A stretch of 64,000 nucleotides of DNA from an uncultured Eubacteriales bacterium (GTDB lineage Bacteria; Bacillota; Clostridia; Lachnospirales; CAMVHY01): NCBI GenBank assembly GCA_948543815.1, contig CAOVHW010000004.1, positions 10,079 through 74,078 on the forward strand, in the 5' to 3' direction. Below are positions 43 through 36,033 of this stretch, piece after piece; within the stretch, counting starts at the first letter, position 1, and the number at the start of each line of letters is the position of its first letter. The notes under the pieces are model-generated. The model did no database searches. It worked only from the letters and a program-made list of their open reading frames with translations, and was not told where the DNA came from. The position numbers and the translations under genes are program-made.

Positions 43-1689
43 TATTCTTATTTTTTCATTTTCACTTTCAATTTTATCAACTGGTGTTCTTTCTATATTT
101 AATTGTTTAAAATTGTTTATAATTGTTTCTAAATTTTTCTTATGGTTTTCTAAATTTTTTTTAGATTTTTTTAAATCATTTTTACGAATATCTTGCTCTA
201 TTTTAAGTTTTTCTATTTCATTTCTCTTACCTTCGTATTTTTTAAATGAGCACAAATAAAATAATGTTTTTATAGGAACTTGCAAACAAAGACAAATATA
301 AATATTTTTTATATTATTTTTTTCATCATTTTCATACATGAATTTTAACAATTCTATAATTCTTTGTTTTTCATCCGTTGAAGCTTTTGTTTCGAAATAT
401 TCGAATATTTTCTTAAAATCGTTTTCTTGAAATTCATTATTATTGTTTAAAAAAACAAATATATTTTTAAAATAAGAATTAAATATTTCATTATTTAAAT
501 TAAGATAAAAAGATGTAGTAAAAAAAATGTTTTTTAAAGAAATTAATTTTTTTTCAAAATTTGATTCTTCATTTTCTTCTTCTTCATTTTCTTCTTCTTC
601 ATTTTCTTCTTCTTCATTTTCTTCTTCTTCATTAATAAACTTTTCAAAATTTTGAATTGAAAATAAATTGATTAATTTTGATGCGTTTTTATCATTTATC
701 TTTAAAAATTTTTTTGATAATATAAATCCTAGCCTTTTATTACTATCAGAAAAGGATTCAGGAAGATTGAATACACTAAAATTTTTTTCCATAATTTTAT
801 CAAAAGCAGATAAATTTAGAAAATCAAATGAAAATAATTCATAAAAATCTTTGTGATTAAAAATATCATTCCATTGTTTTTCTGAAAAATTAATTTCTTT
901 ATTTTTATCTAAATAATTAATCAAACGCTTTAATTCTTCTAATGGTGTTGTTAATATAGAAATTTTTATTATCGATTTTTTTAAACTTTCGTCATCATTT
1001 ACAAAATAGTTAAAAATATTTGTTGGCGTTAATTCAATTTCAATTTTTTCTGTTAAGTTAATTACGTGTAAATAATATTCATATAATGATTTTTCTTTAC
1101 AATAGTCTAAAATAGTTGATAGTAATAAGTTATTCTCTAAAGTTTTATTTGAATTATCAGGAACTATATGCATTTGTTTAATTATGTTTAAAATATCATT
1201 ATTGTTTAATAATTCATCAGAATGTTTATTAATAAATTCAAGAAAAATTGTAATTAAATCATTTAATTTAATTTGACTTGAATGCTCATCTTTGCATGAT
1301 TTAAATAAATCTGCAAAATACGAAAAATTATCTTTGATATTTAAATTTTTTATTAAACATTCTTTTATTTCTAATAATGGGTTTTGAGATGTAAAATCGA
1401 ATATTTTACAAATAAATAATAATTTTTCTAAATTTGACGCATTATAATTTATTGTAGCTAAAATCAATAATTGCTTAAATTTTGTGTTTGGTCTTTCGGT
1501 AATTAAAGCGTTTTGTATGAAATTTTTAGAATTGGGTAATTCAGATTCAGATATATCTGCTTCCAAAAATTTAGACAAAAAGTTTTTAAATAGTCGATTT
1601 TTATAATCATTTTTAGTTGGGCCCTTTAAAATTATTTTTTTAAATTGATTCCAAGGAAATTTTAGTAAAAAATCAGTTTTTTTTTTGCG
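1..1689 (-). CDS. C-terminal continuation of giant paralog A. Partial: it runs off the left edge and is reachable from ORF 1662..4853 only by a -1 shift or an extra A.
   Basis: The minus-strand frame with codons at 3k-2..3k is open from 1689 to position 1 (about 560 codons, no stop) in very A+T-rich DNA. My hand translation reads FPWNQFKKIILKGPTKNDYKNRLFKNFLSKFLEADISE...FINEEEENEEEENEEEENEEEENEE...KIRIEEDKIKKEEDKIKK. The first in-frame ATG is about 160 codons in (1173..1171), and I see no Shine-Dalgarno-like run near the 5' end. It is missing from the ORF track because it has no stop inside the window. Confidence 0.6.
571..630 (-). repeat. In-frame 15-nt tandem repeat, 4 perfect copies, encoding (EEEEN)n
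   Basis: The plus-strand unit attttcttcttcttc occurs at 571-585, 586-600, 601-615 and 616-630. It lies inside the open minus-strand frame. Confidence 0.9.
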
Positions 1690-4600: not shown

Positions 4601-4853
4601 ATGTATTAAATAAGTCTATATAACTTATGTTAGGAGCATCTTTTCTATGACAGCCAACATTAATTGCAGTTCTTGATTGACAAGTATTTACTTGAGACAT
4701 ACAAATAATTTTATCATTAGATTGAGAAAGAATTTTTAATTGAACTATTGGGATAATAAATAAAGTCCCAACGTCTCCATTTTTTTGTTTCATCATTATA
4801 TTTGTACAAAATGTTTTTGGATTTAAACTGTTTAAATTTATTCTTTCACTCAT
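1662..4853 (-). CDS. Giant-protein paralog A, conserved N-terminal module (1063 aa as it stands). Function unknown.
   Basis: Long ORF. It is collinear with the first ~1050 aa of the 3319-aa ORF. Shared blocks include PIVQL, VNTCQ(S/T)RT, APNxxYIDxxNTYI, DHETQ, DGRTF/DRTF, FIGKNxFxYxPL, FNEIIExxxKxEC, FDWI(K/R)KD and VFKINNY(A/T)IQEKN. RBS GGAAGTGA lies 5 nt before the ATG. There is no N-terminal signal-like hydrophobic stretch. Confidence 0.85.
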   Translation of the reverse strand: MSERINLNSLNPKTFCTNIMMKQKNGDVGTLFIIPIVQLKILSQSNDKIICMSQVNTCQSRTAINVGCHRKDAPNISYIDLFNTYIRYFESSKNNFSEDEIKIINVMKDISDIFNKYYQVKSQGISKDVPVENIIMPERNVFSAIEKISSKNKTLALNSVGYKDYDDWQIIIDPNSDLVSLFIRDTGINLNCRNPITRSAHIDGSVTLKTWINHPNTTGNTEADIINNRFKAKFNPSINDAKTLWHGSYILQSTMHTIALMNLNSPINIRTTMLRNFLNLKEDIKNNHSDLLNISLDSPGNYKQIYIFLINSIYQSTNIELSAEFVKQIIDLIESIFNSFIEIDHETQIIINYFDKKDRTFGDGFIGKNLFFYLPLTSVIKKCLLDYLTDYIGSNSNLSINEIIETLEKIECNITQKLTDTDLTDTEDSRTEIFGAQKINNAYKVPTNYGVGISLDFLCECLTFDDKYIPRNANLENINNALENNKTFKNEDQFNQLEANSYPDLSQQALLNLFNAHFDWIKKDVHKLAFIPMSKFEELTIQNIKDMDEGDHFTLLTNYNGTAQIKNSYSFASYINPMAIANLQACFMLNSNFEGFEKIIINLIPHFTHKQIKILDFSFLTNNLIENLLHTKFDLIDDNNFKKIRLNEIKEEYCLKILQEKLMDSKNEFLLTQSQISSLGPNIAQKISMEILIALINSYFDLSNDFIKEINITALKTKLIEEKKFDKYLTFFEKNLDKFTIEQLIIVNINKDFKNKNELKIEFIKKLNESSAGNLNNIYLDVFKINNYAIEQKNLLPEILINQNNSEENIARCLNGFKYILEHSNNFSDFINDLFENEIREFIGFDEIFNENNLPELIALFDTSILSINALNNIINLFFIKSEKIKEKLENETHKIKFSLQQLLNIKNLKELSCNNLIKIFYVNEIELTYDTTENIKKEIKTFFENDINYEKILIILSYAPKNLYKDYINKIDMKELKKLYPDKSNDAEGFEDFTNMMDKNIYLFTKEQINDFGLNDKDGNTYSFILMRIEEFPDHEFKNLNIPNATNEGRIAINAKKKLIFY

Positions 4854-6059: not shown

Positions 6060-6087
6060 AACGGTGAAACTATCAAGGTTCACCGTT
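6060..6087. terminator. Candidate bidirectional hairpin between the convergent pepP and giant gene B
   Basis: acggtgaa (6061-6068) pairs with ttcaccgt (6079-6086) around a 10-nt loop. An A-run lies upstream and ttttcttttt lies downstream. The hairpin overlaps the last codons of the 3319-aa ORF. Confidence 0.5.
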
Positions 6088-9000
6088 TTCTTTTTGTGTT
6101 TTTGATTTTGTTTCTGAATCGCCAAGTTGTGGAATTTCTTCCTCATTACTAAAATTTTTATTTTCCGTTTTATTGAAAAGAGAAGAACGCTCATTTGAAT
6201 TTTCAGTTGACATTTCATGTTCAGAGTTTTTTACTGAACTTTTTTCTGATTTATTATTTATTATTTTAATTGCAGACGGAGTAATCGAAGCTACAGCAGC
6301 AGCGAAGAAAGTTGAAAGCAAAGAAATTCCAAGAATTTGTCCTATAATAGGGAGCGCAAAAGTTAGTATTGTAATTACAATTGCAGTTATTGCAAATACA
6401 ATTCCTAAAGCTAAAGTAATAAATGGCCAAATAATTTTATTATTTAATTTTTGGTTTTTAAATTTTTGTTTATAATTTATATTTTTTTCATTTGGATCAT
6501 CTGGATTTTTTACAATTTTTTGCTCAGCTTCTTTTTCGGCCATACGTTCGGCTTCTTCTTTAGTTTTGCGTTCAGCTTCTTCTCTAGCTTTGCGTTCGGC
6601 TTCTTCTCTAGTTTTGCGTTCAGCTTCTTCTCTAGCTTTGCGTTCGGCTTCTTCTTTAGTTTTGCGCTCAGCTTCTTCTTTAGCTTTGCGTTCGGCTTCT
6701 TCTTTGGTTTTGCGCTCAGCTTCTTCTTTAGCTTTGCGTTCGGCTTCTTCTTTAGTTTTGCGCTCAGCTTCTTCTTTAGCTTTTTCTTCGATTAATTTTT
6801 TATTTTTAAATTCCTGTGATTTTGAACGCGTTAACTTTTTTGTTTTTGGGATAATTTCGTCAAATAATAGTTTATCTTGAATTTTATATATTTTATTTTT
6901 TAATTCATTAATTCTTTCAGATTTTTGACTCGCGTTTTTAATTGTTTCCGATATTTCGTAAAGAATGTTTAATGAGATATAATTCCTATTTTGTAATATA
7001 GCTTCATAATTATCATCAAGATAACTATTTGCAATATTAATATATTTATCAATATCATTTTCTTCTAATTTTATATTATCACAATAAATCAATAAGAGTA
7101 TTTTTTCATTATAATTATTATTGCTTAAATCGTAATTATTATCATTTGACATAAACATTTTTTCAATATGCAAGTTTTTATAATATTCATCATCAAAAGT
7201 TATAGTTATCTTATTAAATATATAAGAAGACAATTCTTTGAAATCTTTATTATTAATTATATTATTTAACTGAATTTTGGTTAGAAAGAAATCTTCTTTC
7301 TTTCCTTCTCGTTGTTCTTCTTCCTCTTCTTCTCGTTGTTCTTCTTCCTCTTTTTCTTGTTGTTCCTTTTGTTGTTCACAAAACGCGTTAGCAATAATAA
7401 TTGCATTTTCTATAGTTGCAATTGAAAAATTATTTGTATTAAATACTGTCATTAATTTAGAAATGCTATTTTCATCTAAAAATTCAAGGATTTCTTTATT
7501 GACTAAATGTGCTTCTTGTTTTTTATCGTACTCAACTAATTTTATATTGTTAAGATTCAAGAATTCAAATATATTTTTAGAAAAATTTTCGTATGTTAAA
7601 TTATCACTAGAGTTGTCACTTAACGAATTTTTTTTACACGTATAATGAAAAGCATAAAATAAAAAATTAATGATTTGATCTTGATATAATTCCTTTAAAA
7701 TAAAATCAGAACTTTTGCGTTGAATATCTTCATTTTTATTAATAACAAATAAAGCAATTAAATCGCTTAATGTTTTTATATTTTTTAAATTTGAGTGTTC
7801 CTCGGCAAATATTAAAAAATCATTATTAAAAAATTGTCCGAAAAACTGCCTACAATCTTCATTCTTACAATATTTAATGAAATTATTAAAACTTAATTCT
7901 GATAATTGAAATAAAATTTGTTTAAAAAGAATTTTTCTATTATCTGCATAACAAGAATTTTCAAAAAAATCAGAACCAAATAAACTATCAGAAAAATATA
8001 TTTCTTTATTGTAATATTCAATATGTTCTAGTATATATTTTAAACAAAATCTTGATATAAAACAAATTGTGCTAAGTTCAACATTAAAGTAGAGTTCCGA
8101 ATCCGAATCCACAATTTTTTTAAAAATTTCTTCCCAAATGATTTCAAAAAGAGGATCATGACCTTGTCGAAAGTTATAAAAATCGATATAATTTAATTTT
8201 TTAAATTCAGCTGCATATTGATAATTTTCGCCTAGAAATATTATTTCGTTTAAATCATTTTTGAAATTTGGATTTTTTTCAAAAAATAAATGCAAATTTT
8301 TATAAATAGAATCATATGTTCTGCATATAATTTTTATATTGCCATCATTGCCATCTTCAGTATAAGTTTCAAAATAAGTAATTATACCGATATTCTTTAT
8401 TAAATCTTTAGTGAATTCTTCTTCATCAAATGAAAATATGTCATTAATAATGTTAATAACGTTGTAAAATCCTATATTATAGGATTTATTATCAGGTTCA
8501 TCATAGAGTTTATTAATTATATTATAAAAATTATTTATAATATCTTGGGTTAAATTTTTAAGTGGATTAAGTATACTTTTAGAAATAAAAGATTTACGAT
8601 CTTTTTTTAGACGAATACTTTTGGTAATTTTATTTTTTATTTCAAATATTGTTGTTGAAATTTTTTCTCTAATATTTTGTTCCATTTTTTTAGTTAGTAT
8701 TTTGGAAAATGGCAAATAAATTTTATTCTCAATCGTACTTTCATTAATATCATTAGGGAAATAAATTTCTTCTAATTGTTCATTCAAATCTTTATAAACA
8801 TCCGTAAAACAATTATATGAATAAAATTCAGTTAAAAAACATATCATCAAAGTTTGAAGATTAGATGAAAATTTATCTATATTTTCCTCCTTAAACTGGT
8901 TATTTGCAAAAGATAAAATTGCAGAATTAATATTTTCAATTAAACTAATATAATAATTTTTGTTTTTCATATAAAAGTTTATGTTAGTTAAATCAATTTT

Positions 9001-12000
9001 TTCAGAATTTAAACGAATATTTTCTTCAATCATATCAAATAAAGAAATAAATTTTTGTTCTTTATGTAAATAAAATTCGCCAAAAATATATGCCAACTCC
9101 TCGTTTGATATTGAATCGAAATATTTCTTTTTAATTTTTTTAATATCATCGATATTCAAACGATTAATACGAAAGTGGTCATATAATAAAAGTTTTTTTT
9201 CGTAATCCTGAAAATTGGAGATGCCAATAAAATTATCTAAAAATTTATATAAAAAATCGAACAAAACATTTTCGTGAATATTAAAAATATCTTTTTCATT
9301 GTTATAAAATTCTTGAAAAAAAAATCCCAAATTAGCAAATAATTCTTTTGGAGCAGAAACTAATTTTTCTTCTATAAAGTAATTTATTTTTTTAATAAAT
9401 AAATTCATATTTTTTGAATAAAATTTAATAATACCTTTAAGGAGATTACTACCACTCTCAAAATCAATTGCCCAAAGTATTCTTAAAGGTAATTGACAAA
9501 AATAATTTATTTTTTCATCCAAATCTGTAATATCATTGAAAAAAAGGCTTGGTTTTAAATTACACGGCAAATCCATACAATTTAATTTATTTGATAGATC
9601 ATTATTTGTAAAGATTATATTTCCATTATCATTTTTTTTGAAAAGATCAGTAAAAGAAATAATAGAAATTATATTTTCTTTTATTATTTCTTGTATATCA
9701 TTAGAATTCATCTTATTTTGATAGATGAACAACAAATCATTTATATATACTTTATTTATAAATTCATATTTTAAAAGCAAAAATTTTTTGGTAATAAATG
9801 TTTTATGCATATATTGATTATTATGTTTATTCCAATCAAAATAGTCATTAAGAATATTTTTGAATTTATCATTTTTAATTTTTGTTAATTCTGACAAAAG
9901 AATTTCTAACGGTTGCAAATTTAACATAAATAAATTTTTGTTTTTCAATATATAAAATACTTGTTCTTCGTTAAAATTACATAATTTATTTTTTTCGTGA
10001 ATTATTTGCAAAAAATTAAAACTTAAATTTTCTGTATTTAAATAATATAAAAAATGCCAATTGGATTTAAGCGCATGTTTAAAGAATTTACTTGTTTCAT
10101 TATTGAAATTTGGCCATTGAAATTTATTTATAGAGATTATTTTTAACATATTATTTGGGCAATAAAAATTATTCGAATAAATATAATTTATCATTTTAAC
10201 AAAATTTTCTTTATCTAATTCTTGCCTATTTTTATCGGTAATATAAATATTGAAGTCAGTATTACTATCAAATAAATTTGTTAATATATTTATTATATTT
10301 TTATTTTTATTTTTGTTTTCATTTAAATATTCTATTACATTCCAAAAATTATTGTAGAAAAAATTTTTAAATATTTCCTCGGTTTCTGAATTGTTTTGGT
10401 TTTCATCATTAATAATCAATGCAAATAAAGTTTGATTTTTTTGGGGATTATAAAAGTTTTTTTGAAAAGATTTTTCCATTAATATACTATTTATTAAATT
10501 AAAAGGTAATAAATTAACACAATTTATTGTGTAATTTAAATCATACCCTTCTTTTAATTCCAAATTGAATTTGGTATTTTTTTTAATTTCCAAGCTTTTT
10601 ATTTGTTCAAGGTATTTTTTGAGATGTTCATTTTTTAAAATTACTTTGTTAGTTTCGTCAAATTCACAGCTTGCAAAAAGACGGTTTATACAAATTTGTG
10701 TACATTTTTCAAAACTATAAGCTTCAGAAAGTTGCAATATATTAAGATCATTTTCGTGTTTAGAAATAATATTAATAAAAAAAATTTTTCCATCGTATTC
10801 ATTTTTTATAAATGATTTAAATTTAAAAGGTGAATTGCAAAAATCACGAATTTGCCATATATCATTTTTCGAAAATTTATCTAAAAAAAGTCCTAAATAA
10901 AGTAATACTAATTTTTGTTGAATGTAATTATCATTTGAGGGTGAAGCTTCAAAAATATCATAAAAATAGTTTAATTCTTCTATTTTATCATTATTTAAAG
11001 AGCAAAAATGATAAAATTCTTCGATTGATAATAATTGCAATAAATCATTTTTACGCTTAAAGTTTATCAATTCATCTGTGTTGAATTTTGCTTCTGAGAT
11101 TTTTTTAAAATTTTCATTTGATAATTTTTCAATATTTAATTTTATGAAATCATAAAATTGTCCCTGAATTGCATTATTGGAAATATATTCTTTAGGCAAG
11201 TTATGTATAAAATTGTAAAATGATTCAATAAAATAATTAAATTCGCTTTTTTCATAATTGTTTGCTACTGAAATTTTATCAAGATCTTTTATATATATAA
11301 GGAACAATTCACAAATATTATCGTTTATTTTAGAATTAAATATGAATTTTAATAAAATAAATGGTTCAATATTAAGTTTATCAATATCTTTTCTTATTTC
11401 TTGAATATTACTGTTTTGATTGAGAGCAATTAATTTTTCACAAAACGCAATTTTAAGGTTAGCGTAAGTATTTGCTCCCGTCGGAATATATTTAATTATT
11501 TGATGTAAATGATTATATTCTAATTGATCAACCTTTTTATCCTTTAAAATAGTCCATAATTGATTTTCTGAAAATTGAATATCAGTAGATAATTGGTCTA
11601 TTATGTTTTTTAATTTTTCTAATTCTATTGTTTTTATATCGATAATGTTAATTATTGTTTTTATACTTTCGGAATAATTGGAGAAATATTTTAATATTTC
11701 GTTATAGCTACAATTGATTTCAATAGCTCTTATTATTTCAAATATTATATAATTAATATCAAAATCGAATGTTTTATTTTGGTTGAAATAATTCATGAGA
11801 TTAAATAAAAGTTCTTTTATTTTTAATATGTTTTTATTTTTTTTATCGTCAATATTATTATCATTGTTGTTTTTTATTTTTTTGAATTTATTCAAAGATT
11901 CGCTTTTGTTGCTTTCATCTGACAATTCATTTTTTAATTTTTTAATTATAGTTTCGAAAAATTCAAGTAAAATTTTGTGTTTTGAGTCTGATTCTTCTGT

Positions 12001-22556: not shown

Positions 22557-22701
22557 AGTTTTCGCCTCAAATTTATTATCTCTGTTTTTAAAAAATATAT
22601 TAGTGAGAAAAAATTTTATTTAACTAAAAAATTTGTTTTATCTCCATTTATATTGTATAATTTATAAGAGAGATAATAGATTTTCAAAGAAGGTGAATTT
22701 T

Positions 22702-25700
22702 ATGAGTGAACCTGTTATTAGTGAAAGTGTTGATGTGTTTAGAGAAATACGTCGTTGTTATCGTTTATCTTTAGATTTACAAAAAGAAGCTCAAGCTGCG
22801 GAAGAAAATTATAAAAAAATTATTGAAACTGAAGCTAAAAAGTTTAAAGATCGTAACGAAGAAAATTATAAAAAAGTTATAGAAAACGGATCAGTTATAC
22901 AAAGTAGAAATGAATTAGAAAATGTTATATGTAAATTGATGACATTAAGAGATTATGTATTAATGTTAGAACCAATGATGTTACAGGAAAATTTGACAGA
23001 TGCTGAGAAAAATAATATTAATTTCAACATGGAATGGAATAAATATTGTGCGTTGAAAGATAATGAAAAAGTTAATGAGCGTTGGCAAAAATTAAAATCA
23101 GAAAAAGAGGAAGAAGAGGAAGAAAGTATTAGTGATTTTTTTTCTGATGAAAAAAATGAAGAAACACCAAATGAACAAAAAAATGAGTATGAAGAATTAA
23201 TTTCAGAGTTTGGTAATTTTGAGTGTGATAATTTTTTTGAACTATTAATGAAGCAAGTCAAAGAAAATGAAACAACGGATAACGATGAAGATATTAATGA
23301 GCTGAGGAAAAATTATGGTTCAATTAGTAATTTTAATATTCAAGAGAAAAGAGAATTTTTAAATTCAATATTTGATTTTAAAGTTATTACATCAAAAAAT
23401 GTTTTAGATACATTTAAATTACTATTGGTAAGTAGTAAATGTGGGTTATATTCCAGTAAAGTTTCGCATGGTTATGTTAATTACAATATTGAAGAAAAAA
23501 GTTTAGGCGGCAAAAACAAATTAGATGAAATTGCGGAAGATTTGTTTTTTCCTAAAACTGATTTTAAAGATATACCTTCACAAAATATTGGTTCTTCTAG
23601 AATGGATGGATCTTGTTTACTTGGTGCAATCTTTCCATATTTAACGCAGGAGATAATGGACAAGATTGTAGATTATGTCAAAAAGCATAACATGTCATGT
23701 CCTACAATTACTGTTCTCAATGAAAATTGTAAAAATGAAGTAATTTTTAATTATGATGGTGTAACAACTTTTTTTGACCTTGTAATTAAAAATAGATTTG
23801 ACAGGGATTGGGAAAATAATTTTAATTATATTATGTATATGCGTGCTGCAATTGCCATAATGATGTATAAAAATATATCACAAAATAAAAAAAATGAAAT
23901 TAATAATAATGAAATTGCATACGTTTTAGGTTTTGGAACAAATGAAATAGGTTATATTGAAGCAAATTCATCTGTAATGGATGCTATAGCTAATTTAACT
24001 GGTTACTCGATTGTAGCTATTACAAATCAAACTCCACCTTCGTACTTTCCAAGCTATGCAAATTTATCAAATGAATGTGTAAGACTTAATTATTCTGTAC
24101 CGAATAAACTTAAAAGGAGATGTTATAAAGAAGATATTACAAATTATAATAATGATCATGAAAATTCAGGAGAAATAGAAATAAATCAGGCAAATAGTAG
24201 AGCCAAAATGGCTATAAATGATTTTATGTATACCCTTATAAATGGTAATAAAAATGATAAGGTTGAAGCAATTGCTAAAGGTACAAACTCAGTAATTGAA
24301 CCTGCAAAATATAAAATTGATGAAAATACAGAGCAAAAAATTATTTTTGTTAGAAAAAGTTATCTCCATTATGAACCAGTTCAACCAAATGGTTTTAAGC
24401 CTGGAGCGTTAGGAGAACAAGAATTCAATTCAGTTGAATTACCACAAAAGCAAAAAGATTTTGCTAATTATTTGCGTAATCAAAAAACTATTAAACCTGT
24501 TCCTACAAATGTCAGCCAAGAAATGAGTGATTTATTATTCAGAAAAAATTTACCGATATCTCAAATAGAAAGTGCACAATATTTATTGTATGGCATTAGT
24601 CAAAATCCAGAGTTGGTTAATTATTTTCGACAGGTTACTAAATCAAAATATGAGAAAAAAATAGATGAATTTAAAACAACTTGGGAAAATAAATTAAATG
24701 AAATGCAAAAAAATCTGGAAAAAAAATTTGCTAAATCAAAAGAAGAAGTTTTAAAAGCTAAATTTAAATCTATTGAAAAAAAAGATAGTTTTATAAATAA
24801 TTTACGTGATAATTATATAAATCGAATAATGTTTATTAATTTTTTACGTTATTTTATAATGCAAAAATATTTTTATGAAATGGAGATTGAAAATGAATTT
24901 GAAAAATTCTGTTCAGAGCTTAGTTTAAATCAAGAACAAGAAATAAAATTTAATTTATTAATTAGTGAAAATGAAAATGAATATGGAAATTTTAAAAAAT
25001 CGTTTGATGTTTTAAAAAATGTTATAAAGAAGTTAAAATCAAATGAAATAGACGAAGAAAATAGCGAAATAAAAAAAAGAATCAAAAAGAATTATGAGCA
25101 GTCAATAAGTGAATGTAAAAATATTTGCGATGCAATGAAAATGGATTATGGAATAAAAATTGATGATAATTTAATAAAAAAAAATCAAAGTGTCGGAATA
25201 AGTTCATTTTTCCTTTCAGTTTTATCTTATATTACACCGAAAGAATTTAATTTGATAAGAAAATATGTTGATGAAAAAAATCAAGAGGTTAAAATAAATG
25301 GAAAACAAAGGACAGTTTTGGATTGGCTTAATGATTCAGAGGAAAATCTTTTAACTCCGGAAATTTATTTGCGCGCGTATGTAGTTTTAAAATGTTTAGA
25401 AAGATTTCCAGATGATAATAAACGTGATAAAAATTTGAATAGTAATCTTAGAACAATATTAGGTTGTGAGAGAGATAAAAATATAGATTGGACAAATTTT
25501 GCTTTCTTTAAACTAGTTTCACAAACTTTAGAAAAATCAATTTTAATTGTTAGTCCCGGAACAGATAAAGATAAATCAGGATATTGTTGTGTAAAATCAA
25601 AAAATGAAAAGATTGAGATAGATGAAAGTGCAAAAAAATTATCAGATTTTTCATCAACTGAAATAGTAAATGCAGACAAAAAAATTAATAATACCTGTAA

Positions 25701-27444
25701 TAATTTTAGCGAAAATGGATGTATTTGTATTCATTATTCTGATGAAAATAATTTTGCTCCTATTGGTTATGATTTAGATATTAATAAATTTGGCAGTATG
25801 ATTTTATCTATTGATGATGAAGTTTCAACAAAAAATATAAAATTGTTGGCTAATAATTTTTTGGAAACTTTACATGTGAATTTGAGTTCAAAGTTTTTAA
25901 AAACCACAAAAAATGTAATAGCAATGGCATTGTTGAGTAAAAATTTAAAACAAAATGACATAAGTTTACTAAAAAAATGGTTTACAGATAATAATAATAA
26001 TTTTTTAGAAAATAAATTTGAGAAATTTGCAAATATCATTCTTGAAAATATACGCAATCCTTTCCAAACTTCAAGTTTTAATATTTTAGTTGTAGCAAAT
26101 TTATTTAGTAAAGGGATTCATTTTTCTTCAGATTTGAATTCAAAATTATTTCAGATTGAACCTATAGAAAAATTTTTGCCATCAGATATGTATGATGAAT
26201 TTCTGAATAATTTTCTTAAAATTGATAAAAAATCTCAGGAAAACATAATAAATTTATTAATCGATTATAAAGAAAATACTCAATATGTTTTGCCACTTGT
26301 TTGTGATTTAATAAATAATAAGTCTGATGGAAGCATTTATAAAAATTTAGTTACTTTGCTTGAAGCAAAAGAAAACGTTGATTTTTATATCTCAAATAGA
26401 AAAAGTATTGAAGAAAAAAATTATAAATTGATTTCACGATTAAATATAGATGAAAATTTAAAATCTGATTTTATTAAAAAAATCCATTTTTTAAGTTTAG
26501 AAGAATTAAATTTTTTGGAGAAAATTATTTTAAACTCTGGACAAAATGCAACTGCATTATTAAAATTATCTATTAAAGATTTTCAAGATATTAATGAAAA
26601 ATTTATAGAATGGAAGAATTTTTTACGACTTAATGGATTTAGTGAAAGACAAATTAGAAACATGGAAAATAAATTTATCCATGAAAAATTAAATGTCAAA
26701 AATTTTGATGTAAAAAAATTTTTAATTGAAATACATATGATGCAAAAAAATTATTTATTAATTTCCAGCAAAGATAAAAGAGATTATTATTCAAATCCAA
26801 TTGAATACGTCGAAAATTTTCAAAAGGATTTGAAAAAAATAAAAGAAATGCTTCAAAAGCCAATTGGTAATTTTGAAAAATTGTTTGATTTGTGTGATGA
26901 CAAAGTTTTAGTTGATAAATGTTTAACGGCTTTAGAATCAGAAAAAACAAACGAAAGTATTGATTTTGCAAAAAAACTTAAAGCAATAATTGAAATTAAA
27001 AAAAGTTTATGCAGAGTAAGAAGTTGGCATAGAGATACAGCAAAAGCTTTTATTACAAATGTTTTCAGAAGTTATGTAAGCAACAATCCATTTAATTATG
27101 ATAGTTTTGTAAGTAATTTAGAAGATTTTATTGAGCAATATTGTAAAAATCCTCGAGGCTTTGCTGAAATAATACAAATGCGTAATAGTTTGGGCAGAAT
27201 AAATTATAAAACTTTTCAAGCGCTTTATGATTCAAGCTTAGATTCGATTTCAAAAAAATTTACTGAATTGACGAATGATGAAGCTTTAATTTTGTTTTAT
27301 TTATGTATTAGAACCTTTACAAAGAATGAAGTTCAACAAAAAACAAATTTTGCAGAAAAGATAAATGAAGCAATAAAAAAAGAAAATGATTTACAACCAT
27401 CATTACAAAGTAGTACAGATGAATCACTTACTGAGCATAATTAG
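22702..27444 (+). CDS. Large orphan protein (about 1580 aa) with two tandem OTU-like cysteine-peptidase-like regions
   Basis: Long ORF. I prefer the ATG at 22702 with GAAGGTGA 6 nt upstream over the TTG at 22633. Region 1 motifs are MDGSCLLGAI (Cys codon 23614-23616), FGTNEIGYIE...MDAIANLTGYSIVAI and SYLHYEPV (His 24367-24369). Region 2 motifs are GISSFFLSVL (Ser 25204-25206), DWTNFAFFKLVSQTLEKSILIV and CICIHYSDE (His 25732-25734). Confidence 0.85.
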   Translation: MSEPVISESVDVFREIRRCYRLSLDLQKEAQAAEENYKKIIETEAKKFKDRNEENYKKVIENGSVIQSRNELENVICKLMTLRDYVLMLEPMMLQENLTDAEKNNINFNMEWNKYCALKDNEKVNERWQKLKSEKEEEEEESISDFFSDEKNEETPNEQKNEYEELISEFGNFECDNFFELLMKQVKENETTDNDEDINELRKNYGSISNFNIQEKREFLNSIFDFKVITSKNVLDTFKLLLVSSKCGLYSSKVSHGYVNYNIEEKSLGGKNKLDEIAEDLFFPKTDFKDIPSQNIGSSRMDGSCLLGAIFPYLTQEIMDKIVDYVKKHNMSCPTITVLNENCKNEVIFNYDGVTTFFDLVIKNRFDRDWENNFNYIMYMRAAIAIMMYKNISQNKKNEINNNEIAYVLGFGTNEIGYIEANSSVMDAIANLTGYSIVAITNQTPPSYFPSYANLSNECVRLNYSVPNKLKRRCYKEDITNYNNDHENSGEIEINQANSRAKMAINDFMYTLINGNKNDKVEAIAKGTNSVIEPAKYKIDENTEQKIIFVRKSYLHYEPVQPNGFKPGALGEQEFNSVELPQKQKDFANYLRNQKTIKPVPTNVSQEMSDLLFRKNLPISQIESAQYLLYGISQNPELVNYFRQVTKSKYEKKIDEFKTTWENKLNEMQKNLEKKFAKSKEEVLKAKFKSIEKKDSFINNLRDNYINRIMFINFLRYFIMQKYFYEMEIENEFEKFCSELSLNQEQEIKFNLLISENENEYGNFKKSFDVLKNVIKKLKSNEIDEENSEIKKRIKKNYEQSISECKNICDAMKMDYGIKIDDNLIKKNQSVGISSFFLSVLSYITPKEFNLIRKYVDEKNQEVKINGKQRTVLDWLNDSEENLLTPEIYLRAYVVLKCLERFPDDNKRDKNLNSNLRTILGCERDKNIDWTNFAFFKLVSQTLEKSILIVSPGTDKDKSGYCCVKSKNEKIEIDESAKKLSDFSSTEIVNADKKINNTCNNFSENGCICIHYSDENNFAPIGYDLDINKFGSMILSIDDEVSTKNIKLLANNFLETLHVNLSSKFLKTTKNVIAMALLSKNLKQNDISLLKKWFTDNNNNFLENKFEKFANIILENIRNPFQTSSFNILVVANLFSKGIHFSSDLNSKLFQIEPIEKFLPSDMYDEFLNNFLKIDKKSQENIINLLIDYKENTQYVLPLVCDLINNKSDGSIYKNLVTLLEAKENVDFYISNRKSIEEKNYKLISRLNIDENLKSDFIKKIHFLSLEELNFLEKIILNSGQNATALLKLSIKDFQDINEKFIEWKNFLRLNGFSERQIRNMENKFIHEKLNVKNFDVKKFLIEIHMMQKNYLLISSKDKRDYYSNPIEYVENFQKDLKKIKEMLQKPIGNFEKLFDLCDDKVLVDKCLTALESEKTNESIDFAKKLKAIIEIKKSLCRVRSWHRDTAKAFITNVFRSYVSNNPFNYDSFVSNLEDFIEQYCKNPRGFAEIIQMRNSLGRINYKTFQALYDSSLDSISKKFTELTNDEALILFYLCIRTFTKNEVQQKTNFAEKINEAIKKENDLQPSLQSSTDESLTEHN

Positions 27445-28102
27445 TTTCTGCCTGAGATTTTCGTAAATAAAACGGTAGAAAATTTTCGTATGAAAAAATG
27501 CTTTTGGATTCCGAAAGCATTTTTTTTGCGTATAGCAAAACACTTTTTGCTGATTGTAAATTTAAATTTTCTGGTGCGAGCAAAAAGTTTGTGTCAATCA
27601 ATTTTTCTTTATTAACTTCGACGCCATCGCCCAAAAATATTTTTTCATGTTCAAATTTTTTTGTGCGCTCAATTATTTCATCTATACTGCAATTCAAATA
27701 TTCCGAAATTCTTTGACCGTTTTCATAAATTGCCGAATAAACTTGATTACGACGCGCATCCATTATCGGAATAATTATTTTATCCGGTGCAAATATATTC
27801 ATCGTCATTGCGTCAAGTGTTGGCACATTTATTATTGAAATATTTAGTGCATGTGCAAAAGCTTTTGCAGTTGCCGCACCAATTTTTATACCTGTAAATG
27901 ACCCCGGTCCTGATGAACATGCAACGTAATTTATTTCATTCGGTTGCATGTCTAACATCTTTAGCAAATCTTTTATCATTGGCAATAATGTTTGGGAATG
28001 AGTGTAGCCCGCATTTAAATTTATTTCGCCTAAAATTTTTTCTGAATTTCCAATTGCAACTGCTGCCGTTTTACCCGTTGTTTCTATCGCTAGTATATTC
28101 AT
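27428..28102 (-). CDS. tsaB: tRNA t6A37 biosynthesis protein TsaB (YeaZ family)
   Basis: 224 aa starting MNILAIETTGKTAAVAI, with YVACSSGPGSFTGIKIG. This is the typical TsaB N-terminal ASKHA fold signature. Confidence 0.85.
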   Translation of the reverse strand: MNILAIETTGKTAAVAIGNSEKILGEINLNAGYTHSQTLLPMIKDLLKMLDMQPNEINYVACSSGPGSFTGIKIGAATAKAFAHALNISIINVPTLDAMTMNIFAPDKIIIPIMDARRNQVYSAIYENGQRISEYLNCSIDEIIERTKKFEHEKIFLGDGVEVNKEKLIDTNFLLAPENLNLQSAKSVLLYAKKMLSESKSIFSYENFLPFYLRKSQAETNYAQ

Positions 28103-30398: not shown

Positions 30399-33300
30399 AT
30401 GAATATTTATGCCGTAGCAATTTTTTTAGCGGTTATGTTTCTACTAATTTATATTTGTGATACACGCAAAATTTTTCATGTGCTTTGTAATCCATATCTT
30501 GTAATAATTTTTTTCGGGATAATGACACGCATATTTTTTTTGCAAAAATATGGATATGATACGGACGTAAATTGTTTTATGTCGTGGTCAAAGAATTTAT
30601 ACAAACATGGTTTGCAAAATTTTTATTCGCTTAAAATTTTTAAAGATTATCCACCGGGTTATATGTATATTTTGTACGTTTTAGGTGCGCTTAAAGATTT
30701 TTTAAATCTTTCGCGTGAAGAATTTTTGTGTTTGATAAAAATTCCAGCCGTAATTGCTGATATAATTTCTGCTATTTTGATTTATAAATTTTCGTGCAAA
30801 AAATTAGGTTATAAATGGTCACTTTTGTTAAGTTTATCGTACGCGATAAATCCTGCAATTATTTTTGATTCAACAGTATGGGGACAAGTTGATTCGATTT
30901 ATACACTTTTTCTTTTGGCCGCAATTTATTTTGTAACCGAAAAAAAATATCTTTACGGTTTCATAACTTATACATTGGCAATTTTAGTTAAGCCGCAAGC
31001 ATTTATATTTGCGCCGATTTTTTTGTATGCGCTATATGAAATTTTTGTGGAGAACAAATCTTTTTATTTGCCGTTGCAATATGTATTGTGTTCGGCTTTA
31101 ATTTTTATTGCGCTTTTAGTTCCGTTTACGCAAAATTTTAATTTTATCCCGATTATTAATCAATACATAAAAACTTTTTCTGAGTACAAATATTTTGTAG
31201 TCAATGCATTTAATTCGTATATGTATCTAAATTTGAATTGGTTTGCTTTGAATGGAATTGCCGTGCAAATAGCGGAAGTTATTTTGTTGATATGTATAAC
31301 TTTATTTGCGTTTTGGTTTTTAGTAAAAAGTCAGTCGAGGTCAAAATATTTTTTTACGGCTGCGATATTGAACGTTTTGGTTTTCGTTTTTACATTTAAA
31401 ATGCACGAGCGCTATTTATATCCGGCAATAATATTTTTTCTGATGGCATTTATTTATCAGACTGATAAAAAATATTTGCTATTTTACGGTGGATTTTCAT
31501 TTACATTATTTATAAATTGTTTTATGGTTTATCATGAAAAAATGGCGAATGGGAACGTAAATGTTTTTTCGGAGGCAGCACAAATTTTTTCATTGGCAAA
31601 TGTTTTTTTGACATTACTTATGATTTATTTTGCAAAAAATATTTTTGCGAAAGGTAATGAAAAAATTTTAGATATTGAAAAGAAAACTTTACCGAATTTT
31701 AAAATACAGCCCGCGGAAAAAATTGAACCTTCGCAAAAACTTGCAGGCTTAACTAAAAAAGATTGGCTTATGGTTTTATTAATTACGTTTTCGTATTCAT
31801 TAATTGCATTTTTTTATTTGGGTAATACGAAATCACCGCAATCTTTTTTCCACGCAAATAAAAATGATTTTGTCATTGTAGATTTTAAATCTGTCAAAAA
31901 TATTGGTCGTATGCAAATTTTTAACGGAATTCGGCCTGATAAAAAAATTGAAGTATTTCGTTTTAATAAACATGTTTGGGAAAAATGTTCACAAATTGAT
32001 ATCGATGGCGTAAGTTCCGTTTTCAAATGGCATGAGAAAAATTTAAATACAAAAACTCGATTTCTAAAGCTAAAATTTTTGACAGATGATACTTATATTC
32101 AAGAGATTGCGTTTCGTGACAAACATGATAAAATTTTACCGTTGAGAGTGCTTTCTAAAAATTGTCGTCAACTTTTTGATGAACAATATCTTGTGCCAAA
32201 ACATTCGGATTATATGAATAGTATGTATTTTGATGAAGTTTATCATGCAAGAACGGGCTATGAATTTTTACATAAATTAAAAGTTTACGAGACAACGCAT
32301 CCGCCGCTTGGTAAAAATTTTATTGCGTTGGGAATAAAAATTTTTGGGATGACACCATTTGGCTGGAGGTTTTTTGGGACGCTTTTTGGAGTTTTGATGC
32401 TGCCAATATTTTATTTGCTGGCGAAAAAAATTTTTTCGTATACAACTTGGGCAACGTTTGCGACAATTTTATTTTCGCTTGAATTTATGCATTTTGAACA
32501 GACGCGAATTGCGACAGTAGATTCATATACAGTTTTTTTCATAATTTTGATGTATCTTGCGATGTATATTTATTACAGTACAAATTTTTTTGACACCAAA
32601 TTTTTTAAAACACTCATACCATTATTTTTTTGTGCAGTTTTTTCGGGATTAGCATGTGCGACAAAATGGCAAGGATTTTATGCATTAGCCGGACTTATTA
32701 TTATTTTTTTTGCTACTATTTTTTTTCGGTATAAAGAATATTTGTACGCCGTAAAATTTGGCGATGAAACAGTAAAAAATAAATTTGCGCCACTATTTTC
32801 TTCGACATTTAATTTTTGTATCATTTTTATATTTTTGATATTGATTCCAATTTATTTTTCAACTTATTTCTTGTATTTAAAAACAGAGGGCGTAAAAAAT
32901 TTTGCGGACGTAATTAAAAATCAAAATTTTATGTTTAACTATCATGCATATTTGAATGGGACACATTCTTTTGGTTCAAAGTGGTGGCAATGGATTTTAA
33001 ATTTACGCCCAATTTTATTTTACAGTCATTCCTATTCAGAAAATTTAAAAGCTGGAATTAGTTGTTTTGCTAATCCAATAATTTGTTACGGTGGTTTGAT
33101 TTCATTTTTTTATTGTTTGGCAAAATTATCACGTAAGTTTGACAAAATCGCTTTCTTTTTATTAATTGGATATTTAGCGCAAATTGTTCCATGGATTTTT
33201 ATTAAGCGTGTAACTTTTGAATATCATTATTTCCCATGTATACCTTTTTTAATTTTGATGTTAACTTATTTTGTTAAAGATTATGCTTATCCCAAATTTG

Positions 33301-33440
33301 GTAAGAAAATTTTGTTCGCTATTATCGCTGCTACCGCTATCTTGTTTTTTATGTTCTATCCTGTAATTTCTGGTATGCCTGTCTCAAAATTTTATGTTGA
33401 TTTATTCCTGAAATGGTTTGCCTCTTGGCAGTTATATTAA
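30399..33440 (+). CDS. 1013-aa polytopic GT-C glycosyltransferase. It has an N-terminal GT-C-like module, a central soluble beta-rich insert, and a C-terminal PMT/GT39-like module.
   Basis: GGAGGG RBS. The N-terminal half carries DYPPGYMYILY and many TM segments. The C-terminal half carries MYFDEVYHARTGYEF (DE at 32232-32237), HPPLGK and a long multi-TM tail, as in dolichyl/polyprenyl-phosphate-mannose protein mannosyltransferase-like enzymes. Confidence 0.7.
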   Translation: MNIYAVAIFLAVMFLLIYICDTRKIFHVLCNPYLVIIFFGIMTRIFFLQKYGYDTDVNCFMSWSKNLYKHGLQNFYSLKIFKDYPPGYMYILYVLGALKDFLNLSREEFLCLIKIPAVIADIISAILIYKFSCKKLGYKWSLLLSLSYAINPAIIFDSTVWGQVDSIYTLFLLAAIYFVTEKKYLYGFITYTLAILVKPQAFIFAPIFLYALYEIFVENKSFYLPLQYVLCSALIFIALLVPFTQNFNFIPIINQYIKTFSEYKYFVVNAFNSYMYLNLNWFALNGIAVQIAEVILLICITLFAFWFLVKSQSRSKYFFTAAILNVLVFVFTFKMHERYLYPAIIFFLMAFIYQTDKKYLLFYGGFSFTLFINCFMVYHEKMANGNVNVFSEAAQIFSLANVFLTLLMIYFAKNIFAKGNEKILDIEKKTLPNFKIQPAEKIEPSQKLAGLTKKDWLMVLLITFSYSLIAFFYLGNTKSPQSFFHANKNDFVIVDFKSVKNIGRMQIFNGIRPDKKIEVFRFNKHVWEKCSQIDIDGVSSVFKWHEKNLNTKTRFLKLKFLTDDTYIQEIAFRDKHDKILPLRVLSKNCRQLFDEQYLVPKHSDYMNSMYFDEVYHARTGYEFLHKLKVYETTHPPLGKNFIALGIKIFGMTPFGWRFFGTLFGVLMLPIFYLLAKKIFSYTTWATFATILFSLEFMHFEQTRIATVDSYTVFFIILMYLAMYIYYSTNFFDTKFFKTLIPLFFCAVFSGLACATKWQGFYALAGLIIIFFATIFFRYKEYLYAVKFGDETVKNKFAPLFSSTFNFCIIFIFLILIPIYFSTYFLYLKTEGVKNFADVIKNQNFMFNYHAYLNGTHSFGSKWWQWILNLRPILFYSHSYSENLKAGISCFANPIICYGGLISFFYCLAKLSRKFDKIAFFLLIGYLAQIVPWIFIKRVTFEYHYFPCIPFLILMLTYFVKDYAYPKFGKKILFAIIAATAILFFMFYPVISGMPVSKFYVDLFLKWFASWQLY

Positions 33441-34062: not shown

Positions 34063-36033
34063 ATGGAAGATATGGAAGAAATTACTTTCGCAGGACAAAA
34101 ATATTATTTTACAGAGGAACTAGTAAAGTTGTGGCAAAAAAGGTTAGTTTTAGAAATTTTTAAGCAAAATGCTACTCCTGAAAAACAGAAATATTTGAAA
34201 TTTGAGTTTGAATATGGAGATACAAAATATACTAAGTGTATTAGTGGTTTAACTGATAATATGATTAATGAAATAATTAAAAATGACAGGAATTATGTTG
34301 AAAATTTTGTAAAAAAAAACTTAAATATAAGTCAACAAAAAATTATATTTTTACTTAATAATTTTGAATTTAGTTTTGTGATAGATGATAATTTAAAAAA
34401 TTATTTAACCAATCAATTAGTTAATTATTTTTTAAAACGATTTTTTCTAGAAACTGAAGAAGATTTTGAGTTCTTGAGTGAATTTATTCCGTCCATTTTA
34501 TTTTATGGATTAAATGAAAGATTGAGTAGATTAAGAGAATTAAAATGTTCAAAGGAAGAAGAAAATATTATTCAAAATGAAGTTGTTTTTTACATAAAAA
34601 AGTTAAACATCTTAGAACGATTTAGTGTTAATGAATTTAAATTTGCTCAATTAGAATTAGATTTACAGATAAAATTTTTAGCTTTAATGTCTATTTATAA
34701 AAAGCCTGAACAAATTAATTCAATAATTAATTTTTTTAATAGTGATTTATTCACAGAAGCTGAAAGAAATAATTTTATGAAAATAATTTTGAATAAATTT
34801 TTGGAAGAACGTGCAGATAAAGATTTTGGTTTAAAATCTAAAGTAGTAGGTCAAATTGGAATAAATCAAACAACAAATGAAGCTATGTTTGATGTTATTA
34901 AGGATAAATTATTTTTGTTTAAAACGAATAAAAGAAAGTTTAAATTTGAATTAAGCAATTTAAAAGAAAAATTTAGTAAAAATGAAAATTCAAATTTGAG
35001 TTTTGAAAATAAGGATTATCTTGAAAAAAATTCACCAATGCGTGAAGTATATATAAAATGTTCTCCAGTAGAAATGATAAATTTAGTATTATTTGTTTAT
35101 GAACACTCTCCAGATACTTTAAAAACAAGTAAGACTTATGAAAAGTTGAAAGAAAATGTTGAAAAAAATGATACTCTAACAATTGAGATTTTATCTAAAC
35201 AAATGGTTAATACATTTGAAAATTGTATGAATTTAAATCAAGACAAAGATATAGAAACGTTGAAAAAAATTATTTTTAGAAAAGAAAAGGAAATAGAAAA
35301 TTATATTTATGAAGAAGTTAATTTAAAAGATAGAGTAAAACATATAACGGCTTTAGATAAAGCAGTTATTATTATTAATAAAAAAATTGATTATGAATAT
35401 AAAATTGAATTAATGGCAAAAAATTTAACAGAAATTTTATTAAAAGGAACGGAATCGGAAAAAATTTTGCAACAAAAAGAACAAATTATTTTGGCAAATG
35501 CACGAGAAATTTTTTATGATGTTTATAATGTTAAAATGGGAGATGATGAAAGAAAAAAATATAGAAAAGCGCTTGCTAAAGCAATGGATTTGGCTGAAGC
35601 AAAAATTCATACTGAATATTTTATTAATGCTTTTCGAAAATATACAAGTAAAAGATGGTGGCAACGTGAGAAAACGATGGAAGAAAAATTAAAAATTGTT
35701 AATGATATTTATACGAATTCAGTTGAAGGAATGAGTGAAGTGCAAATTGAAGTGTTAACTCAAGCAAAAAGAATTGTAACAAATGAATTATTAAGTAAAG
35801 AATATGAACGATTAAATGAAGAAACAAATGAATTTGCAATGAATAATTCGCAAACATCAGAAGAAATTTTTGATTTGGGCGAAAAATTAAAGAAAGACAT
35901 AAATTCTAGTAGTCAACCTGAAAATGTAAAAAAGAGTTTGCTTGAAAAAGTAAATGATATCGGACGGAAAAAATTTGAAAATATTCCACTTCAACAAATT
36001 AATTCTGATTTTAAATTTTTCTCCAATCATTAA
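34063..36033 (+). CDS. Orphan 656-aa helical protein with no TM segment. Function unknown.
   Basis: Long ORF in A+T-rich DNA with GAGGTGA upstream. I recognise no motifs. Confidence 0.85.
   Translation: MEDMEEITFAGQKYYFTEELVKLWQKRLVLEIFKQNATPEKQKYLKFEFEYGDTKYTKCISGLTDNMINEIIKNDRNYVENFVKKNLNISQQKIIFLLNNFEFSFVIDDNLKNYLTNQLVNYFLKRFFLETEEDFEFLSEFIPSILFYGLNERLSRLRELKCSKEEENIIQNEVVFYIKKLNILERFSVNEFKFAQLELDLQIKFLALMSIYKKPEQINSIINFFNSDLFTEAERNNFMKIILNKFLEERADKDFGLKSKVVGQIGINQTTNEAMFDVIKDKLFLFKTNKRKFKFELSNLKEKFSKNENSNLSFENKDYLEKNSPMREVYIKCSPVEMINLVLFVYEHSPDTLKTSKTYEKLKENVEKNDTLTIEILSKQMVNTFENCMNLNQDKDIETLKKIIFRKEKEIENYIYEEVNLKDRVKHITALDKAVIIINKKIDYEYKIELMAKNLTEILLKGTESEKILQQKEQIILANAREIFYDVYNVKMGDDERKKYRKALAKAMDLAEAKIHTEYFINAFRKYTSKRWWQREKTMEEKLKIVNDIYTNSVEGMSEVQIEVLTQAKRIVTNELLSKEYERLNEETNEFAMNNSQTSEEIFDLGEKLKKDINSSSQPENVKKSLLEKVNDIGRKKFENIPLQQINSDFKFFSNH

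Follow-up and report, generated by a model that had tools for sequence, protein, structure and literature searches.

An orphan protein of an uncultured Clostridia bacterium: strain-level hypervariability and a putative OTU-like cysteine peptidase domain with a Cys-to-Ser duplicate

The DNA analyzed here, referred to as the window, is a stretch of 64,000 nucleotides (nt) of contig CAOVHW010000004.1 (assembly GCA_948543815.1) from an uncultured Eubacteriales bacterium; all positions refer to it. An open reading frame (ORF) at 22702..27444 (+), opening with an ATG start codon, encodes an orphan protein of 1580 amino acids (aa). With slightly more confidence than doubt, this single-gene, multi-domain protein is regarded as an extremely divergent OTU-superfamily peptidase (region 1) joined to a pseudo-OTU duplicate of it (region 2), and within the OTU superfamily it probably forms a new and extremely narrow family that combines an active domain with a pseudo domain. 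Most robust among the new results, and missed in the initial annotation of the window, is the hypervariability of the protein between strains of the same species, in the midst of an almost invariable chromosomal environment.

The extent of this hypervariability is evident from the protein identities between the window and the syntenic loci of three other strains:

L001: five flanking proteins 99-100% identical to those of the window, orphan protein 84.5%
L085: five flanking proteins 97-99% identical, orphan protein 65.5%
L002: five flanking proteins 98-100% identical, orphan protein 39.4%

At the nucleotide level, the divergent block in L002 coincides with the coding sequence (CDS), because identity of ~96% holds up to position 22715 and is resumed from 27443, while it falls to an undetectable level at the CDS borders (22716-27442). 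The 5' leader and the first ~14 nt of the CDS are still conserved, and a partial recovery of nucleotide identity, to 73%, is seen over 24653-27067. Between the window and L001, region 2 is 99% and region 1 69% identical. The orphan alleles are mosaics, a pattern that suggests intragenic recombination.

Non-synonymous (dN) and synonymous (dS) substitution rates were calculated by the method of Nei-Gojobori. The dN/dS ratio of the orphan gene is 0.82-0.92, while that of the flanking genes is 0.00-0.17, except for the comparison of Vut_1 with L002 (0.37); the dN of the orphan is 10-100 times that of the flanking genes. In the closest pair, the dS of the orphan (0.078) equals that of the flanks (0.07-0.10), so that the excess is specifically non-synonymous. 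In distant pairs, the orphan dS also lies above the flank dS, which suggests recombination or allelic lineages of considerable age. None of the four alleles, divergent as they are, has a disrupted frame, which implies that the protein is produced and under selection. The high dN/dS would then reflect diversifying selection or, alternatively, weak constraint everywhere but in a few blocks, four sequences being too few to separate the two.

The window contains another hypervariable ORF, at 34063-36033 (+). It encodes 656 aa, is devoid of a Pfam match, lies in a stretch of 23% GC, and is 48%/41% identical to the syntenic 744-aa ORF of L002; its neighbors (a PMT-like protein, dCTP deaminase and UppS) are 94-99% identical to their L002 counterparts.

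Against this background of rapid change, a small set of positions in region 1 is strictly maintained. The features of this region are listed below; P0004 is a metagenomic relative described further on, and the model was computed with AlphaFold2 (AF2).

23572..24399 (+): region 1, aa 291-566; putative cysteine peptidase domain of the OTU-like (Otubain-like) type, presumably active, as suggested by Foldseek, by hidden Markov model (HMM) scores relative to shuffled sequences and by weak colinear HMM fragments
23605..23616 (+): Cys loop D302-G-S-C305, in motif DGSCLLGAI at aa 302; invariant in the four alleles and in P0004
23614-23616 (+): C305, candidate nucleophile; DSSP helix 61-69 of the model starts at C61 (= C305)
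23842..23844 (+): R381, in the Y-M-R-A-A-I-A helix; candidate basic residue supporting the Cys loop; invariant, aligned to R891 in region 2 and to YLRAYIA in P0004
23950..24027 (+): G417-Y418-I-E-A ... A-N-L-T-G-Y-S-I-V-A-I-T; aromatic loop, helix and strand, putative counterpart of the OTU W-G-G/E-I..A.S...I.V block
24037..24321 (+): insert 2, aa 446-540; of low conservation (19% invariant), with ~30 aa fewer in the allele of L002
24367..24369 (+): H556 (H-Y-x-P-V-Q-x-N), general-base candidate, in LHYEPV at aa 555; invariant, with a weak HMM fragment to the OTU His strand

In the alignment of the four alleles, with identity to the window as low as 39%, the residues D302, G303, S304, C305, R381, G417-Y418-I419-E420-A421, H556 and Y557 are invariant. 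Predicted core elements of region 1 are about twice as conserved as its insert (34-38% invariant residues vs 19% in insert 446-540). The initial annotation had described two tandem OTU-like signatures on the basis of seven short motifs, all of which are present in the order and at the places given there; besides those listed, they include GTNEIGYIE at aa 412 and MDAIANLTGYSIVAI at aa 426. The Cys codon it had named (23614-23616) is exactly that of C305. In the model, C305 is located at the start of a helix, the aromatic-loop block forms a helix (179-189) and a strand (192-198), and a β-hairpin is followed by a predicted β-strand (strands 291-296, 299-308 and 313-316), with H556 lying one residue ahead of that strand, where the predicted local distance difference test score (pLDDT) is below 50. 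Such a placement of Cys and His is as in papain-fold enzymes. The spacing between C305 and H556 is as long as 251 aa because the poorly conserved insert lies between the central strand and the His strand; the unusually long insert before the His, which had been noticed earlier, is real and covers aa ~446-540.

Region 2 repeats this arrangement with a Ser at the nucleophile position. Its features are as follows:

25177..25791 (+): region 2, aa 826-1030; copy of region 1 in which Ser occupies the nucleophile position (pseudo-OTU); best-conserved part of the protein
25204..25206 (+): S835, aligned to C305, in GISSFFLSVL at aa 832; invariant
25732..25734 (+): H1011 (C-I-C-I-H-x-S..N-N-F-A-P-I-G), predicted counterpart of H556, in IHYSDE at aa 1010; invariant

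When region 1 (five sequences including P0004) was aligned with region 2 (four sequences) by hhalign, a match with E=2.6e-6 and a probability of 88.6% was obtained over 118 colinear columns, which begin at the C305/S835 helix, include the Y-x-R-A helix and end in the helix-strand block; with three sequences on each side, the E value was 3e-3. On account of this E value and the colinear columns, a tandem duplication with replacement of Cys by Ser is well supported. The alignment places C305 opposite S835, 530 aa further downstream, which agrees with the separation of about 530 aa and the Ser-for-Cys exchange proposed in the initial annotation, and S835 is invariant in the four alleles, as are S834, R891 and H1011. 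The pairing of H556 with H1011 was read by eye (H-Y-...-N-x-F in both regions) and lies outside the confident hhalign alignment. The aromatic candidate of region 2 is W930, in DWTNF...ILIV at aa 929, and the predicted order of secondary-structure elements in the models is the same in both regions. In its Cys loop (G-I-S-S835), region 2 has lost Asp as well as Cys, while its Arg and His are retained. Its elements are 46-68% invariant, vs 25-30% in its inserts.

For the assignment of region 1 to the OTU superfamily, its model was compared with 350,542 PDB chains by Foldseek. OTU-family deubiquitinases (DUBs) accounted for all 50 of the 50 top matches, with Otubains in first place. The best match was a rice OTUB-like protein (6kbe; E 0.011, probability 0.89); the others comprised OTUB1 of human and C. 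elegans, OTUB2, the OTUs of Crimean-Congo hemorrhagic fever virus (CCHFV) and other nairoviruses, DUBA, OTULIN, FAM105A (6drm), OTUD1 and wMelOTU of Wolbachia. The top 50 alignments span 86-303 columns, with E values of 0.011-0.7 and target-normalized template modeling (TM) scores of 0.22-0.43. When the same model was searched against BFVD, several annotated viral OTU proteins were among the top matches, within a noisier list. Since a single family, which makes up a tiny fraction of the PDB, was selected, this outcome is taken as real but moderate evidence for an OTU-like arrangement and not as the product of a meaningless model.

The support that sequence profiles lend to an OTU assignment is weak. 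A small profile of the Otu1/YOD1/viral OTU set was assembled from verified sequences and database matches carrying PF02338, the reference sequences having been checked against the PDB (yeast Otu1 corresponds exactly to 3BY4, and human OTUB1 to its entries with E=4.9e-163); the profile is thin because the yeast Otu1 search yielded only 8 proteins. The hhalign comparison of region 1 with this profile gave a Cys-loop match with E=2.7e-4 and a probability of 41%, which is confident for 13 Cys-loop columns only. Run with filters off, the Otu1/YOD1 HMM produced, for three of the four full-length alleles, two colinear fragments below threshold, one covering the Cys loop (aa 301-328) and the other the His strand (aa 539-562). 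The region 1 sequences were scored by the corresponding mini-HMM above 993-1000 of 1000 composition-matched shuffles, a test that is partly circular because the OTU family was picked from the same motif. A relaxed, low-confidence alignment to OTUB1 is colinear as well, pairing TFFDLVI with TFMDLIE, YMRAAIA with YLRLLTS, and the helix-strand blocks.

The narrow span of the hhalign match and the circularity just mentioned weigh against the OTU assignment, and so do a number of further results. The match to PF02338 by which the initial annotation had proposed to check its claim was absent: hmmscan against Pfam at E<=10 returned neither PF02338 nor Peptidase_C65 (PF10275) for the whole protein, its separate domains, P0003 (the L002-type allele) or P0004, and eight constructs from which both inserts had been spliced out yielded no OTU family, the only signals being noise below threshold (Aph-1, for example). 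Searches of the PDB by sequence and by profile with regions 1 and 2 produced no match beyond chance. The AF2 models, based on three-sequence alignments, are of low confidence (region 1, pLDDT 39 and predicted TM score (pTM) 0.47; region 2, pLDDT 47 and pTM 0.49), and low-confidence models can give meaningless structural matches, as the tool itself warns. None of the Foldseek matches of region 1 reaches E<=1e-3, every E value being 0.011 or above and every TM score 0.43 or below, and the Cys-loop motif may have helped to draw OTUs into the list, because Foldseek scores 3Di states plus amino acids. The structural comparison that had also been proposed thus leads to OTU DUBs, at low confidence, for region 1; for the model of region 2, Foldseek matched nothing, and as many as 106-220 of 1000 shuffles score as well against the Otu1/YOD1 HMM, giving region 2 no independent OTU link. 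Two positions behind the His (H-Y-E), the acidic residue is replaced by Val in the allele of L002, with D302 remaining invariant, and in P0004 a stop codon precedes any His strand. A dN/dS near 1 is also expected under relaxed constraint. At the locus, the orphan has no signal peptide, no secretion system adjoins it, and its flanks are housekeeping genes.

Taken together, region 1 is likely an OTU-fold peptidase domain, a fold assignment with moderate support. The OTU-like peptidase claim of the initial annotation is supported in part: for region 1 it is backed by invariant residues, Foldseek matches and HMM scores, and it finds no backing in Pfam or for region 2 taken by itself. That region 1 would be an isopeptidase of the ubiquitin or ubiquitin-like protein (Ubl) type is possible, with doubt somewhat outweighing confidence, and a eukaryotic ubiquitin system, of a host or a protist, is a rather doubtful target.

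The orphan status proposed earlier is confirmed by the near absence of relatives. Pfam, NCBIfam, PADLOC and PHROGs gave no match for the whole orphan protein, its distant allele or P0004. Among 5.8 billion proteins, two relatives only were found, P0001 (85% identity) and P0002 (66%), and an exhaustive HMMER search of 1.84 billion cluster representatives with a region 1 profile added only P0003, which is the allele of a third strain (L002-type), and P0004. The latter is the only relative from outside the species; it comprises 303 aa (E=2e-4) and originates from a 1.1-kb cow-rumen contig, ERZ932249 (PRJEB21624; L082, 186-1097). It keeps GDGSC and the following helix (GDGSCQLHS..QEQMDKIVDYV, YLRAYIALK) as well as a W...VEIMSE block, combining features of region 1 and region 2. 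Its start is probably an internal one at MSQASINS, and P0004 might represent either an N-lobe that stands alone or a copy that has been truncated or is decaying. A search with P0004 as query yielded nothing further, and relatives were found neither in GTDB genomes with the orphan as query nor in JGI metagenomes and IMG/VR with the four-allele alignment; a back-translated MDKIVDYV pattern gave six chance matches in metagenomes, none with DGSC context. PDB searches with the N- and C-terminal parts of the protein returned chance matches only, such as PA28 (E 0.43). Within insert 2, residues ~457-516 (24070-24250) align with the PH-kinase linker of human AKT2 in the PDB (SRAKMAINDFMYTLI vs ARAKVTMNDFDYLKLLG, E 0.45-2.2), which is probably a chance alignment.

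Bacterial OTUs are known from Chlamydia, Legionella, Coxiella, Wolbachia, Rickettsia, Burkholderia, Escherichia albertii and Spiroplasma, and all those characterized in the cited studies act on host ubiquitin or Ubls (PMC7396840, PMC7690952, PMC12501173, PMC12453411). The active-site features of OTUs are the Cys loop, an aromatic residue holding the Gly-Gly tail, a basic residue supporting the Cys loop, and the His loop (PMC7396840, Schubert et al.); DGSC, Y418, R381 and H556 are the respective invariant candidates, assigned by position and order only. The helical lobe measures 50-60 aa in classical OTUs, 110-120 aa in Otubains and 178-210 aa in LotA/LotB/LotC (PMC7690952). With 113 aa from C305 to Y418, region 1 is Otubain-like and not Lot-like, in agreement with the Otubains leading the Foldseek list and with the colinear OTUB1 alignment; the corresponding value for region 2, from S835 to W930, is 95 aa. 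With the Otubains (OTUB1/OTUB2, C. elegans OTUB1, the rice OTUB-like protein; Peptidase_C65) the orphan shares the D-G-N/S-C loop, the order of Cys before His and the lobe length. It differs from them by an extra insert of ~95 aa before the His strand, an unconserved acidic residue after the His, Tyr in place of Trp as the aromatic residue, the embedding of the domain in a 1580-aa bacterial protein, and the lack of a Pfam or sequence-level match.

The initial annotation had drawn a parallel to LotA of Legionella, which turns out to be loose. Both are bacterial proteins with two OTU-like domains in tandem, and the Lot class also has in common with the orphan a long Cys-to-His spacing (251 aa in the orphan, 241 in LotB, 280 in LotC; PMC7690952) and a sequence too divergent for routine domain annotation. 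In contrast to the Lot class, the orphan lobe is short (113 aa vs 178-210 aa) and its extra length follows the central strand; both LotA domains carry the catalytic Cys, while the second copy of the orphan has Ser in all four alleles. Furthermore, the Lot proteins serve an intracellular, Gram-negative pathogen as Dot/Icm effectors, whereas the orphan locus is without an evident secretion system or sign of an intracellular lifestyle. Wolbachia wMelOTU, ChlaOTU, EschOTU and the Coxiella EmcB family are further examples of the OTU fold in host-associated bacteria; EschOTU and EmcB, however, are circularly permuted, with His before Cys, unlike the order of C305 and H556 or S835 and H1011 (PMC7396840, PMC12501173). 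The Spiroplasma Spaid/RAO OTU toxins resemble the orphan in stemming from a very AT-rich lineage in which OTU proteins are diversified by recombination, but their OTU domains are annotated in InterPro (IPR003323), and Spaid joins ankyrin repeats to the OTU domain (PMC12453411). Unlike the orphan, all of these other bacterial OTUs and the Spiroplasma toxins come from intracellular or vertically transmitted bacteria. Region 2 finds a parallel in the pseudo-DUB FAM105A/OTULINL, as it keeps the scaffold without the nucleophilic Cys and the Cys-loop Asp; in contrast, it shares a polypeptide with an apparently intact copy, keeps its His, and has a model that is itself unmatched.

From the positions of these residues, a mechanism may be sketched. 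C305 at the helix start would act as the nucleophile, and the D302-G-S-C loop, buttressed by R381, would form the oxyanion hole. Y418 would replace the OTU Trp that clamps the Gly-Gly tail of the substrate, H556 beside its β-strand would serve as general base, and the scissile bond would, by analogy with every characterized OTU, follow a ubiquitin-like Gly-Gly C-terminus. Region 2, having arisen by tandem duplication of region 1, would function as a non-catalytic substrate-binding or scaffolding module; since it is under stronger constraint than the active copy, it probably binds a substrate or partner. The fast-changing N-terminal region, the surface of region 1 and the inserts may mark an interface under conflict, and rapid non-synonymous change with the frame and the catalytic positions intact is read here as antagonistic co-evolution with a binding target. 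In its most far-reaching form, which is considered improbable, this reading would make the orphan the founding member of a hitherto unrecognized OTU-superfamily DUB family of uncultured gut/rumen-type low-GC Clostridia, a lineage distinct from the intracellular Gram-negatives and the Mollicutes, with an active Otubain-like domain and a conserved pseudo-OTU ubiquitin-binding module, the allele hyperdiversity of which would be driven by an arms race with an animal or protist ubiquitin system.

A real OTU/papain-fold hydrolase could also act on an intrabacterial or non-ubiquitin substrate and be unrelated to any eukaryotic host. Its target might be a bacterial Ubl conjugate, the 1580-aa protein itself in a self-processing reaction, a different acyl or (iso)peptide bond, or phage proteins. 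This reading is considered unlikely. It would fit with the isolated position of the gene among FtsEX, PcsB-like, Vut_1, TauE, TsaB and Ffh, with the lack of a signal peptide and of nearby secretion genes, and with an organism that is known only as an uncultured Clostridia metagenome-assembled genome (MAG); strain hypervariability is typical of phage-bacterium conflicts, too. On the other hand, there is no match to a PADLOC defense model or a PHROG, E1/E2/Ubl-like genes are not adjacent, and the characterized bacterial OTUs cited above target host ubiquitin or Ubls.

Alternatively, the protein would be no peptidase at all but a fast-evolving, mostly helical protein, perhaps a structural or surface protein, in which the OTU motifs are coincidental and the AF2 model has been nudged by DGSC; this carries a similarly low probability. 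The uniformly negative Pfam, NCBIfam and PDB sequence searches, the pLDDT of 39, the absence of a Foldseek match at E<=1e-3, and a dN/dS of ~0.9, which suggests little constraint over most of the sequence, would all be in line with it, as would the occurrence in the genome of several further large ORFs that lack a Pfam match, of which at least one is just as hypervariable. Coincidence, however, does not readily account for the invariance of precisely those positions that an OTU requires (D-G-S-C, R, aromatic, H) at 39% overall identity, in conserved blocks between variable inserts, nor for a single family occupying all 50 top Foldseek ranks with alignments of 160-200 columns, far longer than the motif, nor for the same block order in the duplicate. 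Least likely, and indeed most improbable, is a polymorphic toxin or inter-bacterial effector, with a papain-like toxin or release peptidase and recombining alleles in the manner of LXG/type VII secretion system (T7SS) toxins or of the Spiroplasma 'RAO' proteins. Extreme allelic diversity, the mosaic conservation of regions 1 and 2 relative to L001, and the description of OTU-domain polymorphic toxins in Spiroplasma (PMC12453411) would speak for it, but its low rank follows from a reversed architecture, the N-terminus being most variable and the C-terminus comparatively conserved, contrary to polymorphic toxins, and from the lack of a small immunity-like gene downstream, where convergent tsaB overlaps the stop codon. 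Moreover, no LXG, WXG, Rhs, PT-domain or signal sequence was found, and mobile-element genes do not flank the locus.

If region 1 is an active OTU isopeptidase, bacterial OTUs would extend to an uncultured Clostridia lineage without known injection machinery, and one would have to ask whether the enzyme serves to manipulate a host or protist, belongs to a bacterial Ubl pathway or takes part in a conflict with phages. Provided that the fold is right, the orphan would represent a known kind of enzyme in a new lineage with an unusual active-plus-pseudo tandem architecture; an active domain next to a better-conserved Cys-to-Ser duplicate would be a model for the origin and specificity of pseudo-DUB modules. 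Enzymology aside, the locus is a case of gene-confined hypervariability, with 39-85% protein identity inside a chromosomal backbone that is 96-100% identical. At least one other orphan gene in the window behaves alike, which suggests that this lineage possesses a class of rapidly evolving conflict genes to which standard annotation is blind.

The remaining features of the orphan gene and its product are:

22633..22661 (+): promoter-like element read from the sequence, with TTGTTT (22633-22638), a 17-nt spacer and TATAAT (22656-22661), the latter directly preceded by TG
22690..22696 (+): AAGGTGA, a strong Shine-Dalgarno sequence located 5 nt upstream of the ATG
22702..23571 (+): N-terminal region, aa 1-290; acidic, K/E/N-rich, most variable part of the protein (15% invariant), without PDB or Pfam match
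24400..25176 (+): linker, aa 567-825; K/E/N-rich, helical
25792..27441 (+): C-terminal region, aa 1031-1580; moderately conserved, no detectable similarity to anything

The promoter-like element is missing from the promoter-scan listing, the scan requiring four of six positions in the first hexamer; the DNA upstream of the ORF that contains it is ~96% identical in strain L002. At its 3' end, the orphan gene overlaps the convergent tsaB by 17 nt (27428-27444). No terminator-like hairpin is found between the two genes, the nearest such site on the + strand (27572-27596) being located inside tsaB. The gene order Vut_1, TauE, TauE, orphan, TsaB (convergent), Ffh is kept in L001, L002, L083, L084 and L085. 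The wider neighborhood consists of housekeeping genes (Mur ligase, a PcsB-like M23 peptidase, FtsX, FtsE, dCTP deaminase, UppS and Dxr) and is free of secretion, mobile-element, defense and E1/E2/Ubl genes. A search of the window revealed neither a paralogue of the orphan nor a second D-G-N/S-C motif. The GC content is 19-38% in the window, ~25% across the orphan ORF and 26% in the genome; in such very AT-rich DNA, an open frame of 4.7 kb cannot be accidental. When the neighboring Ffh was used as query, it matched a MAG contig, CANEHT010000012 ('uncultured Clostridia bacterium'), with 99% identity, and the next-best genome with only 60%, indicating a deep, poorly sampled Clostridia lineage.

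Three other explanations of the locus were considered and rejected: a pseudogene, as the frame is open in four alleles despite ~40% nucleotide divergence in a genome of 26% GC; a defense-island gene, in view of the missing PADLOC match and the housekeeping flanks; and prophage or mobile-element cargo, as no such genes are nearby and the divergence stops exactly at the CDS borders.

Elsewhere in the window, the most AT-rich part (19-21% GC) is occupied by two giant ORFs of 3319 aa (6073-16032, -) and 1063 aa (1662-4853, -), which have no Pfam match and are unrelated to the 1580-aa orphan. For two more large ORFs, of 706 aa (53549-55669, -) and 795 aa (58214-60601, +), no Pfam family was obtained at E<=1e-3. 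Large proteins that escape annotation seem to be unusually frequent in this genome, interspersed with housekeeping genes. At 30399-33440 (+), a membrane protein of 1013 aa is encoded that carries a C-terminal PMT / PMT_4TMC module (dolichyl-phosphate-mannose protein mannosyltransferase-like) and is 97% conserved between strains.

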